IMG/VR virus record: IMGVR_UViG_3300021256_002372
Location: 1-64,000 of that record
Length of the DNA: 64,000 nucleotides
Direction: 5' to 3' (one strand)
DNA from: a virus
Taxonomy: Duplodnaviria; Caudoviricetes
Part shown: one piece after another, positions 50,922 through 62,264 of the stretch
Layout: every line of letters starts with the position of its first letter
Position numbering within the stretch: the stretch's first letter is position 1
Made by a program: the position numbers and the translations under genes
The notes under the pieces: generated by a model
Seen by the model: only the letters and a program-made list of their open reading frames with translations
Told to the model about the DNA's origin: nothing
The model's database searches: none

Positions 50922-53570
50922 TTACATTGTTTTCAGCATTTCTGCAAAATCAGCAAGGGTATGTGCGTTTTTGATTGGTTTATCCATAAATACCATAAAA
51001 TAGCTGTATTTCGTTCCAGTTTCGGAGGCACTCGATGCCCACCGTTTACCTAATTCCAACTTCGTATCGCTATCATCATTACCAAGCTGTTCGCCCTTAA
51101 ACTCAACTACAAGAATCCGGCCAGACTTCATTTTCACTATGAAATCCGGATAATGGTTGATGAAGGCATTGATCTTAAAGCCTTTTTTTCCTATGATTCT
51201 GTGCCACCACTCGACACTGTCCGTGCTTGCGAACACATCACGCAGTTTGGCTTCATCATCGTTAAGGTCATCGCATTCTGACTCATACAGAGAAAGCGGT
51301 ATAGCGGAAGTCGCATCTGAGGGAGTAATGATGTCCGGAAACGCATATTCTTCCTGACAGCAGATTTTCCCGCTGTCAAGCCACTTATAAAACATTTTCT
51401 CTCTGTATGCATCCTGCAACTTTTCAATTTTATCCTTGATACGCAGAGCATAGGTCTGGAAAGAGGTCTCAATCACAGACAGCTCGTCCTCAGTCATATT
51501 GGCTACGACTCTGTGAACATAGGCTTCAATATCAGATGCGGCAAAGGCATTATTCTTATTGATGATATGGCAGATATTGCGTACACAGCTTGCAATTTTC
51601 TCCTCCGGAGCCATTCTTGCGAGCATTTCTCTGAGGTAGTCGCTTTGAAGCTGGGATGCACGCTTATACTTCGGAACTGCATCGCCCTGCTCTGCAACAT
51701 CGAATTCGTACATTTCTCCTGCTGACAGCGTGAAGTTCACCTCGGCATCCTGCCCACTGAGAGTAAATCCGTCAAGCAGTGCATCCTTTTCAAGTTTTAC
51801 TGTATCGCCAAAGAACAAGCTCTGTGCAGACTGGATAAAGAACTGCGGAATACGAAGAGCCTTGACCTGTTCCGTATACTGCGGTTGGATGTGATATTGT
51901 TTCATCATATTTCCTAATTCGCCCCCGATAAAACCGGAGGACTCGCTCTGTTCTGCTTCTTCCTCGTACTCTTCAGACTGCTTTTCAGCGTGAGAGATCA
52001 TAGCTTCGATCTCGGGAGAAGCAGATGTTGTGGCTGTAGGTGTGAATGTGAGTGAATGCTTATCTGCGTCGGTCGGAACAATATCCGAGAAATCATCAAT
52101 ATCGCTCTGCACAGGTTCATCTGTTGCAGGAGGTGCCAGAGGAATGGACGGCTGCTCAGCAGGAGTATCCTCGGGCTCATCAGCCGCAGGAAGTTCCTCT
52201 TCACCAATGCGGTAATCTTTGCTGCTGAAGCCTGCGCTGTTCAGTCCCTTAACAATATTGTTCAGGGTATCACGGAAATCATTAGAAGAAGTCAGAACGA
52301 AAGACATATTCAGTAGCTTAGACTCGTGCTTTCTTGCATACGGCTGACGAAGGATTCTACCGAGAATCTGCTCAACATCGACTTTGGAGGTTTTATTGGC
52401 GAGCGATGCAAGAATATATGCAAATGGACAGTCCCAACCTTCTTTCAGAGCATTGACGGTAATGATATATCGAATCGGGCAATCACGGTTCATAAGGTCG
52501 GTTTTGCCAAGATCATCAACCTTTGATGTTTTGATTGCAATCTGTTCTTCGGGAATATCATATTCCATCAGCATTTGCTTGACTTTTTCAAAGGTTTCGC
52601 TGTCGCTGTTTGTATTTGGCTGTGCCTGAAACAGAACGATAGGACGGATATATTGTCCTCCCGCTTGTTCTTCTGCAATTGCTTGCTGTTCGAGTGTGTT
52701 TCGGAGCTTGATAGCATCCATAATCACGCTCTTTCGGGATGTACGGTTATACACGATAACAGGGAGCTTGACCATGTTTTCCTTTTTCAGCTCTCTTGCA
52801 TTCACATAGGAAATGATGTTGCTGTTCTTGCGGGGTGTCGCTGTCAGGTCAAGCACAAAGGACGGATTCAGGTTTTTCAACATCTCCACGCTGAGATCGG
52901 AGCCTGCATTGTGGCTCTCGTCCACGACCACAACCGGCTGCAAATGGCGCAGAACCTGAATCAGTGCCGTATCCGGTGTATCTGCCAACAGAGCAGAATC
53001 ATCCTTGAAATACTCAGCAAAGCGCAGGAGATTTCCGTTTTCCTGATACACCTTGCGGACATCCTTCTTCTTGCTGTCAATACGGAGAGAGCCATAGCTG
53101 AGAATGCAAACTGTGAGCTGTTCCCGTACTGTATCGGGTGAGAAATTCTGTCCGGTCAGCAGCATTTCCTTTGTATAGACACCGACACGCCCTGCAAAAT
53201 CAGCATTCAGCCGCTGACGGTATGGGTGGTCGATGCTCATGAGATTCTTTGTAGTTTGGACAAGGATAGGATCAGACGGCACAAGCCACACAACCATTTT
53301 CAGTTTGCCCTGTGGAAGTTCATCAAAGATGCACTTGACAGCAGAGCAAGCCATGAAGGTCTTGCCGCCGCCGGTCGGCACTTTCATGCAGACGTGCGGA
53401 ACACCTGCTATCGCATTCTGGTATGCCGGAACGCCGCCGAGTCCGACAGCAATATCCTGCTCCCGCCAATAGTGCCGCCATGCCTTGTTGAGGTCGTTGT
53501 CATCGTTCAGGATAGAAATATAGGTAGAGAGGTCACGCATGACCGATTTCTGATAGTTTTTCAGTTCCAT
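50922..53570 (-). CDS. res: Type III RM restriction subunit
   Basis: VPTGGGKT, DESH, TATP, EGWDCP, QILGRILR, C-terminal YPDF...VEFKG nuclease. Confidence 0.9.
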   Translation of the reverse strand: MELKNYQKSVMRDLSTYISILNDDNDLNKAWRHYWREQDIAVGLGGVPAYQNAIAGVPHVCMKVPTGGGKTFMACSAVKCIFDELPQGKLKMVVWLVPSDPILVQTTKNLMSIDHPYRQRLNADFAGRVGVYTKEMLLTGQNFSPDTVREQLTVCILSYGSLRIDSKKKDVRKVYQENGNLLRFAEYFKDDSALLADTPDTALIQVLRHLQPVVVVDESHNAGSDLSVEMLKNLNPSFVLDLTATPRKNSNIISYVNARELKKENMVKLPVIVYNRTSRKSVIMDAIKLRNTLEQQAIAEEQAGGQYIRPIVLFQAQPNTNSDSETFEKVKQMLMEYDIPEEQIAIKTSKVDDLGKTDLMNRDCPIRYIITVNALKEGWDCPFAYILASLANKTSKVDVEQILGRILRQPYARKHESKLLNMSFVLTSSNDFRDTLNNIVKGLNSAGFSSKDYRIGEEELPAADEPEDTPAEQPSIPLAPPATDEPVQSDIDDFSDIVPTDADKHSLTFTPTATTSASPEIEAMISHAEKQSEEYEEEAEQSESSGFIGGELGNMMKQYHIQPQYTEQVKALRIPQFFIQSAQSLFFGDTVKLEKDALLDGFTLSGQDAEVNFTLSAGEMYEFDVAEQGDAVPKYKRASQLQSDYLREMLARMAPEEKIASCVRNICHIINKNNAFAASDIEAYVHRVVANMTEDELSVIETSFQTYALRIKDKIEKLQDAYREKMFYKWLDSGKICCQEEYAFPDIITPSDATSAIPLSLYESECDDLNDDEAKLRDVFASTDSVEWWHRIIGKKGFKINAFINHYPDFIVKMKSGRILVVEFKGEQLGNDDSDTKLELGKRWASSASETGTKYSYFMVFMDKPIKNAHTLADFAEMLKTM

Positions 53571-53581
53571 GCTGTACCTCC

Positions 53582-55156
53582 TTACAGTCTTGTGATGTCA
53601 CGCGGAATCTTTTTGAATGTGATGTGATAACGCTCCAGCTCTTCTTCGCTGAGAATGCAGCGGTCGGCATAGATCACATAGCTTTCCGCTTTGGTCTTGA
53701 CCGTTGACAGGAAAGCGTGATCGAGTGTTGTTGCGGCATTTTTGTCATAGAAGAAGTAGTATGCCGTGTCAAGATAGGAGCCAAGATAATGCGGCTCGTC
53801 CTCTTTATTGGTTACAGGCTGTTTTGTTTCTGTGAAATAGACATAGCTTCTGATTTTGTCAAGCGGTACATTTTCATTGAGGTATTCACCGTCAAGGAGC
53901 TTTTCACCAAGTTCATAGAAGGTGAAGCCGCCGCCTGTTCCTTCGACTGCCTTTTTGCCGTCACCGTAGCCGTCAATGACACGGCGCACACGTTCAGCGG
54001 TGATCGTTTCAGCATAGTCACACATCTCGATTAGAATAAACTTGCGGTTACCGCCGTCAGCTTTGTTCATGTTGAGGACAGCGTGTGCAGTTGTGCCGGA
54101 GCCTGCAAAAGAGTCGAGAATGACAGAATCCTTGTCGGTTGCAATCTGCATCACTCGTTCTATTAAACGAGTAGGCTTAGGTGTATCAAAAATGCTCTCA
54201 TTATCTGAAAGTATGGACATGATCTCTTTCTTAGCTTCATCTGTGTGTCCTACTTCATCACTAGGCCACCAAGTCCACGGAACAGCTCCTTCGACCTCGC
54301 TCAAATATCTGATAGTTTGGGGCTGAGAATCTCCATTCTTACCAAAATATATACGACCTGCTTCCAGTAGTTTTTTGAACTCAGGCTCTATGGTACTCCA
54401 ACAACGTCCCTTGGGAGGAGTTACTATTTTACCGCTAGGTGTTTCTATAGGATACATTTGATTTGGCCGAAATCCCTGTGCTGTCATCGGAACACCGCGC
54501 CAACGTCCTTTAGGATCGTTATTCGGATTTTTATAGATTTGCGCTTGTTTTTCGTCGAATCCTATTTTATGGCGTGTGTTTTTGAATACTTCGACATCAG
54601 AAGCATATACAAGTAGATATTCGTGCGCATCGCCAAAAGCGCCTCTGTTCTCACGAGAATATCTTTTTTGCCAAACTACAGTTGCTATATGATTGTTTCT
54701 TCCAAAAACTTCGTTGCAGATGATCTTTAGTTCTTCAATTTCATTTTCATCAATAGAAATAAAGATTACTCCTGTTTGTGGATCCAATAGTTTCTGTAAC
54801 AGTTTCAACCTTGGATACATCATGCACAGCCACTTATCATGCCGTGACAAATCTTCACTCTCTGAACCGACAACCTGACCAAGCCATTTTCGGATACGGG
54901 GATCATTGACATTATCGTTGTATACCCAGCCTTCGTTGCCGGTATTGTACGGCGGATCAATGTAGATGCACCGGATTTTTCCTTCGTATTCCGGCAGCAG
55001 ACTTTTCAGCGCCTCCAGATTATCTCCGTGGATAATCATGTTGCCTGTGTCATCACCATAGGTATACTGCGGATCTAACACACGGTAGGGTACGTCCATA
55101 TGATGATTGATAACCTTGTCTTTTCCGATCCAGTCAAGTGTCGGCATTATGGTCAC
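53582..55156 (-). CDS. mod: Type III RM methyltransferase (Mod)
   Basis: IHGDNLEAL, IYIDPPY, TPKP, LDSFAGSGTT. Confidence 0.93.
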   Translation of the reverse strand: MTIMPTLDWIGKDKVINHHMDVPYRVLDPQYTYGDDTGNMIIHGDNLEALKSLLPEYEGKIRCIYIDPPYNTGNEGWVYNDNVNDPRIRKWLGQVVGSESEDLSRHDKWLCMMYPRLKLLQKLLDPQTGVIFISIDENEIEELKIICNEVFGRNNHIATVVWQKRYSRENRGAFGDAHEYLLVYASDVEVFKNTRHKIGFDEKQAQIYKNPNNDPKGRWRGVPMTAQGFRPNQMYPIETPSGKIVTPPKGRCWSTIEPEFKKLLEAGRIYFGKNGDSQPQTIRYLSEVEGAVPWTWWPSDEVGHTDEAKKEIMSILSDNESIFDTPKPTRLIERVMQIATDKDSVILDSFAGSGTTAHAVLNMNKADGGNRKFILIEMCDYAETITAERVRRVIDGYGDGKKAVEGTGGGFTFYELGEKLLDGEYLNENVPLDKIRSYVYFTETKQPVTNKEDEPHYLGSYLDTAYYFFYDKNAATTLDHAFLSTVKTKAESYVIYADRCILSEEELERYHITFKKIPRDITRL

Positions 55157-57094: not shown

Positions 57095-59492
57095 TTATCT
57101 TTTCCCTGTCATCATCTGGAAATGCTGCTCCTGATGCATAACTTTAAAAATTCGCTCAAAAACGTCTCGAAGACTATCTACGCTTACCGCAGAAGAATCA
57201 TAGTATAGACCATCATTAAAACCGATGGCGCCAACATTTAGCATGGCTATCATAGCCGATGCTGCAATATAGTCTGTTCGATCTTCTGTGCCGTCATCAA
57301 GCGTCTTCACAAACTCCTTTTCATTCATGTCCAGGAGTTCGTGTCGCAGATTGCCGCTTTTAAATCCTACCATTTGAATAAAGTAGTATTCGAGAATTTG
57401 TCGCATTATCATCATGAGTGTTTCCGAGTCATCAGTGTAACTATATTCGTGCCAGAGGGTATCATATGTATTACGAACTGGGGAACGATTAATCTTACTT
57501 CCGCCTGAGAATTTCAGTTCATCCGTACACTCTGCAATACTGGTCTGATTATCCTTGCTCTTTTTGATTTCAAAGAACGATGCGCATTCATAGTCACTAA
57601 TTCGGTTATAAGTGATTTCTCGGAAGAAGTAGGGGTTGTGTGTCATGCAGAAGAATTGGCGGATGTGATCGTCACTTCCAGTTTTAGTCATATCGTAGTT
57701 ATTATAGCAAACTGCGATCATCTCCCGAACCAGTGAGGCAACAATAAAGAGTGAACTGCTGTCCATTGAGGATACCGGATCATCAATGATTACTATCTTG
57801 TCTACGACCTTTCCTTCATCCGACTGACTGCCCATAACCATGTGGTAGAAGTACAGGAAGGCTATAAAGTTACGCTCGCCTTCGCTAAGATTCTGTTGCA
57901 CAACTTCTGGATTTCCGCTGTTATCCCTTACAAGTTCGTATACATATTTTGCGCCGGCTTTTTCTTGCAAGTAAAAGCCGCGGAATCCGGCATTTTTGAT
58001 TGCCTTGTTAATGTCGTGCATCGCTTTGGTGGTATTGACGGTCTGACTGTTAAGAAATGCAATATGACGCTCAATCTCATTTGCGTTATCTATGAGCTGC
58101 TTCGCCTCACCATTGGCTTTTCTCCATTCTTCGCGATCAGATTCTGTTTTTTTCTTCCAGTTTGATATTATGTCATCACATTCTTTCGCCAAAAGCCCCC
58201 AGACCATCTTTGTGCATTTTACAGTTTGACCGGGAATGTCAGCAAGAACCGCCATATACGCTTTGATCTCAGCATTAATTGCTTCAGTGAGGTCATTGAT
58301 ATATTTTGAAGTTGAAATAAGACTTTCTATAATGATTGATTCGGCAGGGTTATCCTTCTTTTTCTGAAGCAAAACAAAGTTTCTTTCTATTATTGACATC
58401 AGAAGTTGAGCGTGCTGCCTGTAGTCATCTAATTTGCGAGACGGAAAAGGCGCTTGAAGGTTCCTTTGAATCACTTGCTTTGTATCGTTCATTAAATTTG
58501 TGATTTCTTCAAAATAAAAATCCAAGTTGGAAAGATCCTTCTTGTACTGTTCGTCATAACATGTTGCAAGCATTTCCTCAAAATTTTCAGGAAGCATTCT
58601 TTGACAATAAGGGCATTTCCCGTCTGCTTTATCATGGAACTGTCTGTGTCCAGCAGCAACCCAGTCCATATTACCCAAAGCACGGATAAAAGCAGCAAAT
58701 TCTGTATCAGATCTGCTAACAATCGATTTTCGCATGATTTCGCTCATTGGCTCTATAACAGATGGAATGGGTTTGAACTCTGAATATGATTGCTGATTGG
58801 AATCAGAGATAGTAAGATAGAGGTTAAAGCATTCTTCTTCCGTTGTATCCAAAGGTTGTGTTTCCTCAAGTTTTTTTACGAACTTGCTCTTGTCTTTCAT
58901 AAATCCTGTTTGAGTTGTAGGAAACCTCTTTCTTATAGCTTCGGTTTTCTTCCAAACAGTCGTTATGTATTCTTGCTCGGCTTGTTCATGATTGCTTTTA
59001 TTACTTCGGCAATAATATAATTTGATCAGTTTGAACTAAAAATCAGGAAAGGACGCAACAGCGTTCTTTTGACGGATTTTCAAAAAGAAGAGCCAATTGT
59101 TTAATTGCCGAAGTAATAACCTGATCAGCAGTGGATTGTGCTTCTCTTGCACGTTTTACAAGCTCGGCTTTTATTGCAGCTTGATCGTCTGCCTCTTTCT
59201 TTTTTTGAGCATTGATATCAGAAATAGTGAACACACCCGGAATATTACCATAGCTTTGAATGTTCGCCTTAATAAAGTCTTCGTTATAAACAAGAATCTG
59301 TTCATCTGAAAGTGCCGCATCGCTCCATGTTAGTAATGCCGAATGATTCTTGAAAGATCTGCCGAGGGTAGATTTGCCAGTACCGTTTTTGCCATAGAAA
59401 AAGTTGAGCATGGTCGGTCGGAATGTTACATTGTGGTAAGTTGGGGCATTGATTGTGATGTCAGTAATGTAGCGTCTGATTTTGTCGCTCAT
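57095..59492 (-). pseudogene. RloC-like ABC/SMC ATPase (AAA_13) disrupted by a MITE; about 759 aa if restored
   Basis: GKNGTGKS in 59043..59492; CPYC zinc hook, LSEGE, IDDPVSSMD, THN in 57095..58900; removing 118 bp restores one frame. Confidence 0.85.
59001..59116. mobile_element. 116-bp MITE with 13-bp terminal inverted repeats and TA target duplication
   Basis: TTACTTCGGCAAT...ATTGCCGAAGTAA flanked by TA (58999-59000 and 59117-59118). Confidence 0.85.
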
Positions 59493-59504
59493 TAGAATTC
59501 CTCC

Positions 59505-60173
59505 TTATTTCACTTCAATTCCTTTGTCTTTGGTGATCTGTATGAGATCACCACGCCTTATACTCCAATGTTCCTCGTCAAGCTGATTCCTGACATGAGC
59601 TGAGATAAGATGAAAATCCTGTATATTGTTATTAATCATTTCCTGCTGGAAATATTTAGTTGTTTCAAACACTTCATAGTTAAAAATGATCTTTCCAGGT
59701 TGCGGCTGAATTTTCGTCAGCCTGCCAAGAAAAGACGGGCAATCTTGAAAGGCAGTCTGGAATCTTTCATTTTTCACTGTGAAGAGACATGGCATTTTCA
59801 GCAGTTCGTTAATGTGCCGGTCAGATAGCGGCGAATAGTATTCCTTAAGCTGTGAGTCAGTGTACTTCAAAGATAATTCTGCACTAATTGAAAAAGAAGA
59901 ACCAGAATAGTCTTCGTTATTTAGTACGAACAGATGGAAATGTGAGCGATCAAGTTTAATCCATTCTACGCTGTGCGACTTATGCTGGATTGGGGTTTGT
60001 TGTTGCATGGCTAATGAAATAGCCTGGACGAGCGTTTCAGGGCATCCTTCAATAACCAAATTTCCCTGCAAATTACCTACCGCAATACCATTGTCGGAAG
60101 CAGTAACAGTAGTAGGAACTTGAAACTGTGTCGGAAGCTGAGAGTCTTTGGACTTTACTATCTCATTTTTCAT
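59505..60173 (-). CDS. Hypothetical protein with N-terminal GIAVG motif; paralogue of 60181..60744
   Basis: VTASDNGIAVGNLQGNLVI; C-terminal HWSIRRGDL. Confidence 0.8.
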   Translation of the reverse strand: MKNEIVKSKDSQLPTQFQVPTTVTASDNGIAVGNLQGNLVIEGCPETLVQAISLAMQQQTPIQHKSHSVEWIKLDRSHFHLFVLNNEDYSGSSFSISAELSLKYTDSQLKEYYSPLSDRHINELLKMPCLFTVKNERFQTAFQDCPSFLGRLTKIQPQPGKIIFNYEVFETTKYFQQEMINNNIQDFHLISAHVRNQLDEEHWSIRRGDLIQITKDKGIEVK

Positions 60174-60180
60174 TTATACC

Positions 60181-60744
60181 TCACTTTCCGGGGAATACTC
60201 CCGCATCCTGCATTACTTCAAGTAAATCCACCTTTTTTATAGTCCAGTGTGTCCTTGTCAACTCAAACAAGTGCATAGCAAGATCGGACAAGTTATCCTT
60301 CAGAAAGGAAAACGGAATAGGGAAAAATCTCTGGAAATACACCTTGACACCGTTGTCTTGATCCCTGACATCCTTAATAAAAGCAAATACTGCTTGCTGT
60401 TCCTCAGTGCCATCACGTTCCATTGCGATGATTGCAGGCAGCTTTTTTATTTTTTCAACGATCTCATCTGACCAACCGCAGAACTCATTTTTTACCTCGT
60501 CCGTTATGTACTCGGTCAGAGCACGAGATTTATCCACGAGGATGTAGTTTTTTTCAAAAGGGTCATATCCTATTATCAGGTTGAAGTACCTTGGACGGGA
60601 TGCGGTCTTGATTCCGTCAGAAAGGAACAGATTAATTGTCGGAGAAAATGAATCAGTGTATCCAACTGCAATTCCGTCCCCTTCGGCATGAGCAGAGAAC
60701 GATGTCGGAATAGCGCCTTCTTTTTTTACGATGTCATTACTCAT
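60181..60744 (-). CDS. Hypothetical protein with N-terminal GIAVG motif
   Basis: AHAEGDGIAVGY; C-terminal ELTRTHWTIKKVDL. Confidence 0.8.
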   Translation of the reverse strand: MSNDIVKKEGAIPTSFSAHAEGDGIAVGYTDSFSPTINLFLSDGIKTASRPRYFNLIIGYDPFEKNYILVDKSRALTEYITDEVKNEFCGWSDEIVEKIKKLPAIIAMERDGTEEQQAVFAFIKDVRDQDNGVKVYFQRFFPIPFSFLKDNLSDLAMHLFELTRTHWTIKKVDLLEVMQDAGVFPGK

Positions 60745-61633
60745 TCTTATTTCCCCGCCTTCCGATTACAAGTCCGCCGAACACCTGTCCGATAGCGATA
60801 CCATTATCCTTAGCCACAACATTAAACTGAGCTACGGATTGCTGCTGTGTAGCCGGTTCAGTAAACGGAGCTTCATAAACTTCCACTTTGGGCTGCTCTT
60901 CGTCGGTCACTTCTTCCGCTTCAACTACATCGTTCTCAGTTTTGTCCATTTCTTCCGTCTGGTCCTCCACCATGATTTCATTCTTCACTGTGAGCTTCTG
61001 CGATCTTTGAGTGCCGATATCTGCTGTGATTATTCGCGGACTGTTATCACCAGCTTCCTTAGTCCAGGCCTCATATGTATTAGCTCCTTCTTTAGTGTCG
61101 GGATGGCTGAGCAGAATATTATTCCAAACTGAAAGCAGAAAGTTTTGAAGTACGATTTCCATGACGGTATCAAGCTGTGCTTTGCTTACAATTTGACTGC
61201 CGATATCAAACTCACCGTCAATACTGTCATCTTCAAGTATGAGGTCAATCATTCCGGCTACAAGAAGTGCCATTGATGACTGGCTGAGATCAAGATACTT
61301 CTGACAGAACTTGTCCATTTCATACAGTACCGTTTCTTTCTCATTTATAAGCCGTAAATTCAATCCATTCTTATAAGCAGCATTATCAAACGGAAGATAG
61401 CTGGGGCTGTTAGGCGGACTGCCAGCCAAGTATTTTGAGAAGTACGACGCGAGTGTCTTAGGGTTGTTAGGTTGATATGCCGGATTAGCTAATTTCAGAA
61501 GATCTCGGAGCATATTTGGCTTGGTAACACCGTCTTTGCTGTCTCCGTACTCTTGCTGTGTGGTCAATGTCTGATTTCCAGAACGCAACAACAGTAGTAA
61601 AAACGTATTGCCTCTTAATCGATTCAAAGCCAA
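60737..61633 (-). CDS. Hypothetical protein with acidic linker and C-terminal GIAIG motif
   Basis: TTG start after RBS aaaggtg; ends NVVAKDNGIAIGQVFGGLVIG. Confidence 0.8.
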   Translation of the reverse strand: MALNRLRGNTFLLLLLRSGNQTLTTQQEYGDSKDGVTKPNMLRDLLKLANPAYQPNNPKTLASYFSKYLAGSPPNSPSYLPFDNAAYKNGLNLRLINEKETVLYEMDKFCQKYLDLSQSSMALLVAGMIDLILEDDSIDGEFDIGSQIVSKAQLDTVMEIVLQNFLLSVWNNILLSHPDTKEGANTYEAWTKEAGDNSPRIITADIGTQRSQKLTVKNEIMVEDQTEEMDKTENDVVEAEEVTDEEQPKVEVYEAPFTEPATQQQSVAQFNVVAKDNGIAIGQVFGGLVIGRRGNKNE

Positions 61634-61820
61634 TCACACCTTTCAACTAAATAAACAGAATAAACTGCATAAAGCACATTGCAATAAACTCAATCAATGA
61701 TTTAATAGCTTCAGAGGCGAAACCTCTGAGGCTAATTTTATTACCTCAGCTGTCTCTTTCATTATACCACAGTCTCTGTGAAAAAGCCAGAGGCAAATAA
61801 AAAAATTGGAGGAAAATTCT

Positions 61821-62264
61821 ATGAACAGTATTGAGAACAAAACACCTGCCCACCCCACCGTTTACATCTGCAGCCCCCTCCCCCCCGTTTCCACCGATCC
61901 TATCTTCCGTGCCAACGAGCTGATCGACAATCTGAAGCTCGCCAAGGACGCGGCTACGTTCGCAACGATCCGCGGCTGTGATCCGATCGCCCCGCACCTC
62001 TACTATCCGCAGTTCCTGGATGACAACGATCCGACTGAACGTCAGCTCGGTATAGAGCTGGGGCTGAAGGCGCTCAGAAGCTGTGACGAGCTGTGGATCG
62101 TAAGTAACCGGATCAGCTCCGGCATGAGCGCCGAGATCAAGGAAGCGCAGAAGTGCGGTATCCGCGTGCTGGTGTTCACGAGTGCTGGCTTTAGGGTATA
62201 TACCGGCAACGGCGACATGACAGACAACTGCCATGTTGATACCGCTGATGGCGTGATTGACTGA
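61821..62264 (+). CDS. DUF4406/nucleoside-2-deoxyribosyltransferase-like fold protein
   Basis: VYICSP, PIAPHL.YPQFL, CDELW..ISSGM..EI. Confidence 0.8.
   Translation: MNSIENKTPAHPTVYICSPLPPVSTDPIFRANELIDNLKLAKDAATFATIRGCDPIAPHLYYPQFLDDNDPTERQLGIELGLKALRSCDELWIVSNRISSGMSAEIKEAQKCGIRVLVFTSAGFRVYTGNGDMTDNCHVDTADGVID

Follow-up and report, generated by a model that had tools for sequence, protein, structure and literature searches.

A short peptide motif of about 20-30 amino acids (aa) is shared by the C-terminus of one protein and the N-termini of the proteins encoded next to it in an operon of the virus record IMGVR_UViG_3300021256_002372 (Duplodnaviria; Caudoviricetes). We found the same layout in 110 related loci, where this motif, hereafter the tag, varies between loci and matches within each locus. 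The source is a 125.5-kb IMG/VR virus record, whose positions 1 to 64,000 were analyzed here (the window). All genes of the operon are on the minus strand, including gene A, which codes for a presumed effector, the paralogous genes B and C, and a gene for a zinc-hook ABC ATPase (Table 1). In our opinion, the operon is rather likely to be a prophage-borne, probably anti-phage system of the amyloid-signalling type, made of new parts.

The shared tag

The four genes stand where the first-pass annotation of this DNA had placed them, and they overlap or abut: the overlap of A and B is 8 nt long, 7 nt separate B from C, and 12 nt separate C from the ATPase gene. The start codon of gene A is backed by the N-termini of its homologues (n = 82). 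B and C proved to be paralogues, as had been proposed (BLASTP E 5e-7; a single family profile matches both, E 2e-69 and 5e-61), and A is unrelated to them outside the tag. No Pfam (E <= 0.1), PADLOC, PHROG or NCBIfam family was found for gene A or for genes B and C, and C gave chance-level Pfam matches only. In addition, the promoter/terminator scan was not above the shuffled expectation.

The likeness between the C-terminus of A and the N-terminus of C, first noticed from the letters alone, held up in the alignment: residues 272-290 of A and 23-41 of C are identical at 12/19 positions (pairwise BLASTP E 1e-4). The likeness to the N-terminus of B stood in part. The A tail matches B in the first half of the tag only (6/13 identical), and the E value of 0.26 is not significant alone, but related loci (L045, L027 and L058) back the match, because the first half of their B-type tags co-varies with the A tail. 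Furthermore, the tag-coding DNA of A and C is 54% identical, and the same codon is used at 4/12 conserved residues. Thus, the likeness of the A and C tags is maintained at the protein level. Recent gene conversion or duplication as the origin of this likeness was rejected on the same values.

In the B-type paralogues, the locus-specific tag is reduced to its first half, both in the window and in the three loci just named. After this half-tag there is a segment that is constant across tag classes, with a consensus near ADSF-PT-N. Such a B-type protein could cap or regulate the assembly and not be a full partner in it.

Co-variation of the tags across loci

The 138 related loci were gathered from IMG/VR (42), species genomes (6), metagenomes (80) and exact-protein look-ups. 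The N-terminal domains of the A homologues (n = 82) align throughout, and their C-terminal tails fall into unrelated classes. Locus after locus, the downstream gene or genes belong to the B/C family, and their N-terminus repeats the A tail of their own locus. For instance, the A tail core NQYGEKNIHI goes with the B/C core NQYGEKNVHI in L030, SGSGVNIGQ with TGEGTNIGL in L024, NNYGNGPQIG with NNYGSGPQIG in L059, and NAEGGIQA with NAEGGIQA in L058. Fine tuning was also seen inside a class, where GGIHID is paired with DGLHLH in L047 and GGLVIG with GNLVIE in the window.

Over 12 tail classes, cognate pairs had a mean local-alignment score of 61, compared with 28 for the non-cognate ones, and they ranked first in 10/12 rows. 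With 20 classes from 110 loci, the means were 60.9 and 28.8, the cognate pair was the best in 15/20 rows, and 0/100,000 permutations reached the observed sum (p <= 1e-5). The supposition that the motif varies between loci and co-varies inside a locus is borne out by these scores. In addition, an A gene whose tail matches lies upstream in 3/3 loci picked via the B/C family, and in Streptococcus phage Javan105 the A tail also matches the B/C tag. In class 1, the tag is 83% identical, compared with 46% for the globular domain of A and 45% for the linker. Selection acts on the tag peptide itself.

Additional tagged proteins, of 153-578 aa and of unknown family, are encoded in the 'AEKIYNIEH' tail class, with the tag in N-terminal position (Table 1). 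Thus, the tag network can hold four or five proteins. Two of the loci with such proteins, L043 and L053, have no AAA_13 ATPase and keep matching tags.

Composition and flanks of the tags

The composition of the tag region was compared with that of the globular part in 126 B/C-family representatives, no two of which are >50% identical. N and Q are 2-fold enriched in the tag region, V, T and G are 1.6-1.8-fold enriched, and K, R, E and D are down to 0.4-fold. In the AlphaFold2 models, the linker of A (residues 226-247) has a predicted local distance difference test (pLDDT) value <50, the A tail is modeled as low-confidence strands, and residues 1-38 of C are disordered. Judged by analogy, the tags show hallmarks of published amyloid signalling motifs in position, length, composition and disordered flanks, in agreement with the likeness first suggested for them. 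Meanwhile, a complex prediction for the A tail (residues 244-298) with the N-terminus of C (residues 1-62) scored 0.02 against a mark of 0.32, and this result counts neither way.

Domains of the A, B and C proteins

The globular domain of B and C looks PUA-like in the model of C. The best 18 VIA matches of this model are all PUA-like (Z 4.8-6.9; residues 58-222; 104-132 residues aligned) and include PH1033, VcaM4I, ASCH, the DrmA domain, YTH, THYN1/EVE and McrB-N; the best Foldseek E value was 0.006. The predicted fold is like that of the PUA-like modified-base readers (VcaM4I, McrB N-domains, MspJI/SRA, EVE/THYN1 and YTH) over the whole domain. However, B and C have no sequence similarity to the PUA-like restriction readers, and they are joined to an N-terminal tag and not to a nuclease. 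The B/C family comprises 1,313 clusters at 50% identity, and it was present in 3/399 genomes sampled from the class of the L049 metagenome-assembled genome (MAG).

The N-terminal domain of A, as modeled, is an orphan all-helical fold with a presumed effector role. No structure match was convincing (Foldseek against the PDB, E >= 0.4; VIA, Z <= 3.5; ESM Atlas, TM <= 0.28), profile searches of PDB sequences gave nothing, and the language-model atlas search gave unnamed clusters only. The A domain is also found N-terminal to NACHT and SNaCT14 (Pfam PF05729 and PF22720), which is the effector position of bacterial NLR-like proteins. Furthermore, at least 11 clusters have it joined directly to the B/C domain, and in at least five of them one tag is held in the linker. 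These fused proteins keep the tag although a simple tether would be redundant, which suggests that the tag drives self-assembly.

Two other assignments of A were rejected. As for Bell/HeLo, A matches none of the Pfam families, HeLo included, and its N-terminus, with RLRGNTF and a Leu run, is by eye not 'MEPIS', the motif named in the Bab/Agp paper; no alignment to a Bell domain was made, and these missing matches leave room for a distant relationship. As for a phage repressor, A has no DNA-binding signature and is found fused to NACHT.

The ATPase and the gene order

A zinc-hook ABC ATPase had been proposed downstream of gene C, and the AAA_13 and PDC-S06 matches, the CPYC hook, Walker A and B and the ABC signature confirm it (Table 1). 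Residues C254, P255 and C257 of the hook are invariant in 15 relatives, and the Javan105 orthologue is RloC in the GenBank annotation. The catalytic triad of RloC is Arg-x3-Glu-x36-52-His (Davidov & Kaufmann 2008, PMC2610378). The nuclease motif had been described as missing, and this is correct for the histidine: R-x3-E is kept in the window, L049, L047 and L050, and in these four no His is present at the x36-52 spacing. A His occupies the candidate triad column in 5/15 ATPase relatives; no direct alignment to the RloC of G. kaustophilus was made for this negative. With no triad His, the ATPase is therefore filed as RloC-like and not as a proven anticodon nuclease.

RloC/PrrC and PDC-S06 have in common with this protein the ABC ATPase head, the CxxC zinc hook in a coiled-coil insert (presumed in the window) and the C-terminal domain with R-x3-E. 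RloC and PDC-S06 are also frequently linked to restriction-modification genes, as here. However, both have been described as stand-alone genes, and the ATPase of this study belongs to a tag-linked multi-protein operon. PDC-S06 itself is a predicted, single-gene candidate system, and papers list it as a prediction.

In the window, the ATPase gene is split by an insertion resembling a miniature inverted-repeat transposable element (MITE), which is present in a single copy in the whole record. The 91%-identical locus L049, from an Oscillospiraceae MAG, has an intact ATPase gene (759 aa) without the MITE. Thus, the ATPase allele of the window is a recent knock-out, and the window locus is probably impaired.

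For 72 stand-alone A genes, the downstream sequence covered 4.5 kb or more; 67 of them are followed by both B/C and the ATPase (59 with a single B/C gene and 8 with two or three), four by B/C only and one by the ATPase only. A small HTH_17 gene (excisionase/MerR-like, 'VrlI-like') usually lies between B/C and the ATPase gene, and it is missing from the window operon. The gene order A-B/C-(HTH_17)-ATPase holds down to ~25% identity in A, and identity among the ATPases is 32-60% when loci of all tag classes are compared.

Genomic context

The operon of related prophages is always placed divergently beside the early/replication module (sigma70_r4, PDDEXK, single-stranded DNA-binding protein and DNA polymerase A), and restriction-modification or helicase genes come after it, including an HsdM-like open reading frame (ORF) and an SNF2 helicase. 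The context of the operon is defence-like. In the window, a type III restriction-modification methyltransferase gene is just downstream, and an 882-aa ORF neighbours it. A 388-aa protein has an N-terminal XRE-type helix-turn-helix (HTH) and a later HExxH (HELAH), and it matches PHROG regulator/repressor families; judging from its sequence, this protein is a candidate for a phage repressor and perhaps a repressor-protease fusion of the ImmA/IrrE-like kind. Its orthologue follows the ATPase gene in L049. A terminator-like hairpin was seen in the divergent region upstream of A, and a nucleoside 2-deoxyribosyltransferase-like gene lies beyond it, followed by sigma70_r4-type genes.

The locus of Javan105 (L141, MK448667.1 10008-14082) is in a prophage of the cultured Streptococcus constellatus C232, and it contains A, one B/C gene, HTH_17 and the RloC-annotated ATPase gene. 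In addition, three sister prophages (Javan102, Javan108 and Javan112) have a match to the A protein at an identical record position.

Table 1. Positions of the operon features in the window and of features in related loci (locus named where not the window)
Feature	Positions	Strand	Remarks
Gene A	60737-61633	-	ORF, 298 aa, TTG start; presumed effector with C-terminal tag
N-terminal globular domain of A, residues 1-222	60968-61633	-	predicted all-helical; AlphaFold2 pLDDT mostly >90
Conserved hydrophobic first helix of the A domain	61577-61621	-	
C-terminal tag of A, residues 267-294	60752-60835	-	core AKDNGIAIGQVF; after acidic disordered linker
Gene B	60181-60744	-	ORF, 187 aa; short C paralogue with half-length N-terminal tag
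N-terminal tag of B, residues 16-41	60622-60699	-	core AEGDGIAVGY; from alignment to A tail
Gene C	59505-60173	-	ORF, 222 aa; N-terminal tag and putative PUA-like domain
N-terminal tag of C, residues 21-43	60045-60113	-	core ASDNGIAVGNLQ; matches A tail
Globular domain of C, residues 65-222	59508-59981	-	predicted PUA-like; AlphaFold2 pLDDT mostly >90
Invariant W203 and nearly invariant H202, C-terminal in C	59556-59573	-	family alignment
ATPase as read	59043-59492 and 57095-58900	-	two ORFs of the ORF list
ATPase gene, 5' part	59120-59492	-	AAA_13 E 7e-15, PDC-S06 E 1.9e-23
Walker A of the ATPase	59367-59393	-	in the 5' part
MITE-like insertion, 122 bp	58998-59119	.	16-bp perfect terminal inverted repeats TTATTACTTCGGCAAT; splits ATPase gene
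ATPase gene, 3' part	57095-58997	-	AAA_13 E 2.5e-80, PADLOC PDC-S06 E 2.5e-140, phrog_2801
CPYC zinc hook	58604-58615	-	
ABC signature	57875-57889	-	
Walker B	57761-57796	-	
R-x3-E	57389-57403	-	
XRE-type HTH protein gene, 388 aa	55297-56463	-	
Type III methyltransferase gene	53582-55156	-	PADLOC MTase_III E 9e-199
882-aa ORF	50922-53570		
Terminator-like hairpin	61706-61734	+	12-bp stem
Nucleoside 2-deoxyribosyltransferase-like gene	61806-62264	+	phrog_355
B-type paralogues with half-tag	L045 6887-7447; L027 7884-8474; L058 1493-2095		
Extra tagged proteins	L043 6903-8279; L053 8634-9095 and 9991-11727; L065 2156-3496; L120 6983-7990		'AEKIYNIEH' class
A domain-NACHT-SNaCT14 proteins	L036 6980-9385; L040 6932-9691; P0080		800-920 aa, all-in-one, without tag
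HTH_17 gene	L005 7925-8173; L047 8138-8335; L141 7506-7700		
ATPase with N-terminal HTH_17	L054 3184-5739		

Discussion

If the operon is a system of the amyloid-signalling type, A would be the executioner, with its orphan helical domain, flexible acidic linker and C-terminal tag of ~25 residues. B and C would be the receptors, in which the same tag stands N-terminally and is followed by a putative PUA-like domain that would read nucleic acids or modified bases. A trigger may cluster B/C, with phage nucleic acid or the Rad50-like ATPase as the platform, and the clustered N-terminal tags would then stack into a cross-beta (amyloid-like) nucleus. This nucleus would recruit A and template its matching tag, and oligomerisation would turn on the A domain, by which the infection might be aborted. 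The RloC-like ATPase without a tag would be the fourth component, likewise conserved, and might serve as a scaffold, a co-sensor or a parallel arm.

Several points weigh against this proposal. The Z values of the PUA-like matches are below the safe level, and B and C gave no sequence support for this fold, because Pfam found nothing and the profile search of the PDB found chance-level Ras matches. We infer the amyloid or prion behaviour of the tags from their sequences, and the Pfam amyloid-motif families, RHIM included, gave no match at E <= 0.1. The RHIM match that had been considered for the tags was therefore not obtained, and the class-1 core G-I-A-I-G only loosely recalls the G-phi-Q-phi-G signature of RHIM/BASS3. 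Several A-B/C fusions are without any tag, which leaves room for constitutive tethering. In addition, the A domain has no likeness to Bell/HeLo or a known toxin that could be detected with Pfam, Foldseek, VIA or the Atlas, and thus its effector role is argued from position only. According to Pfam and the model, the tagged receptors B and C are not NOD-like receptors (NLRs) and have no NTPase domain, so that a tagged oligomerising NTPase is lacking; NACHT was seen only in those relatives of A that are fusions. No tag is present on the ATPase either, and it was rejected as a tag bearer, since the scores of A tails against ATPases are at background (mean 28). The first-pass annotation had named the ATPase as the partner of the tagged proteins; the conserved gene order favours this, but the ATPase is without a tag and some loci are without the ATPase. 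Furthermore, most loci belong to related prophages, and independent events are therefore fewer than the loci counted.

Instead of an amyloid motif, the tag might be a constitutive docking element, by which strand pairing would hold A and B/C in a fixed soluble complex, comparable to the fused A-B/C proteins, with no templating and no polymerisation in response to a signal. Docking pairs are usually complementary. However, the tags here are alike on both partners in 20 classes, and up to four or five different proteins have one tag in some loci, which is more in line with a shared stack than with 1:1 docking. The fusions can be read in both ways: single-chain A-B/C proteins, several of them without a tag, are what docking would allow, but at least five of them hold a tag where no tether is needed. 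The same is true of the peptide itself, since AlphaFold2 gives the A tail as an ordinary beta meander and no amyloid-motif family was matched, whereas N/Q/G-rich, charge-poor tags are typical of amyloid signalling motifs. Taken together, we consider constitutive docking unlikely, and it is the alternative that deserves the most attention.

It is also conceivable that the tags do not bind each other and are alike through co-evolution with a third factor that recognises all of them (the ATPase, a chaperone or a protease, for example). Linear motifs that are short and shared may function as degrons or recruitment signals, and the ATPase co-occurs in 67/72 loci with enough flank. However, L043 and L053 have matching tags without the ATPase, no other conserved candidate receptor is present in every locus, and the ATPases are 32-60% identical across loci of all classes, against a class-1 tag that is 83% identical and an A domain that is 46% identical. 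A third factor is thus very unlikely in our view. We regard it as slightly less probable still that A, B and C have no relation to defence and control lysogeny or replication at the boundary of the early region, with the ATPase as an independent defence neighbour. The operon is indeed always divergent beside phage early/replication genes, and PDC-S06 was defined as a single-gene candidate, but the same position is the usual cargo slot in prophages, and the gene order is kept to ~25% identity in A. Moreover, A matches no DNA-binding family (Pfam, PHROG, NCBIfam), its domain is fused to immune-type NACHT-SNaCT14 NTPases, and an XRE-type HTH protein with a repressor PHROG match is encoded nearby.

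Amyloid signalling is thus the reading that we prefer, and it has precedents. Bab/Agp of E. coli ECOR25, with the motif BASS11, is an antiphage pair with an amyloid motif and a non-NLR receptor, reported in 2024 (Ibarlosa et al., bioRxiv 10.1101/2024.11.07.622273). The two systems have in common adjacent genes in prophage defence islands, and a tag of ~20 residues on the C-terminus of a helical effector and on the N-terminus of a non-NLR receptor, which is thought to sense infection via nucleic acids or the transcription machinery. However, the effector here is a predicted 220-residue orphan fold without the Bell/HeLo N-terminal signature, there is an extra conserved RloC-like ATPase, and the tag sequences are different. 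The hosts here are Clostridia, Synergistaceae and streptococci, and the present system is known from genes alone.

The gene pairs of Bell-domain proteins and NLRs with BASS1-10 motifs (Dyrka et al., bioRxiv 10.1101/2020.01.06.895854) and the fungal HET-S/NWD2 pair are also similar. As in Bab/Agp, the tag polarity runs from the effector C-terminus to the receptor N-terminus; several unrelated motif families occur on homologous domains and are matched inside a gene pair; and all-in-one fusions exist, which here join the A domain to NACHT or to the B/C domain. Their receptors are NACHT or NB-ARC proteins, and they occur in multicellular Actinobacteria, Cyanobacteria and fungi. In contrast, the tagged receptors of this study lack an NTPase, and they come from unicellular anaerobes of the gut and from the phages of these. 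Some short-NACHT SNaCT proteins (L036, L040 and P0080) have the A domain at their N-terminus, whereas the A protein of the window is stand-alone and ends in a tag.

Effector-associated adaptor domains (EADs) of NTPase conflict systems are globular domains of roughly 80-100 residues that are shared by an effector and an NTPase. Membership of the tags in this Death-like adaptor group was rejected, because the shared segment is ~20-28 residues long and non-globular in the models, and the NTPase is without it.

The effector fold, the small receptors free of NTPase, the multi-receptor layout, the link to an RloC-like ATPase, the hosts and the many tag classes are new. No paper describing this arrangement was found in the searchable literature, where a search for AAA_13 and amyloid gave irrelevant papers, and the first-pass annotation was right on this point. 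Its broader suggestion of amyloid signalling in antiphage defence had been anticipated by Bab/Agp as a general idea, and it is this particular arrangement that we did not find described.

A bolder picture can be drawn, which we hold only tentatively. The operon may represent a large phage-borne family of immune switches, in which small PUA-like readers of nucleic acids nucleate a prion-like polymer via an exchangeable 25-residue barcode and thereby activate a new helical executioner, together with a nuclease-less RloC-like ATPase. At 50% identity, the receptor domain alone already comprises at least 1,300 clusters of proteins. The barcodes, at least 20 of which are mutually dissimilar, would block the cross-talk of co-resident systems or escape phage decoys.

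At present, Bab/Agp is the only bacterial antiphage system that has been tied experimentally to amyloid signalling. If our proposal is true, gut Firmicutes and the prophages they carry would be added to the range of the principle, which would then also be seen to work where the receptor is neither an NLR nor a TGP, and both the effector and the receptor would contribute a new fold. The family could also explain a subset of the RloC-like PDC-S06 ATPases that have no nuclease histidine, and the convergence of several receptors (B, C and the extra tagged proteins) on a single effector could be studied in it. Javan105-type prophages are a tractable source of the intact system. Meanwhile, the family displays >20 tag classes on one pair of scaffolds, which amounts to a natural experiment on the specificity and orthogonality of templated assembly.

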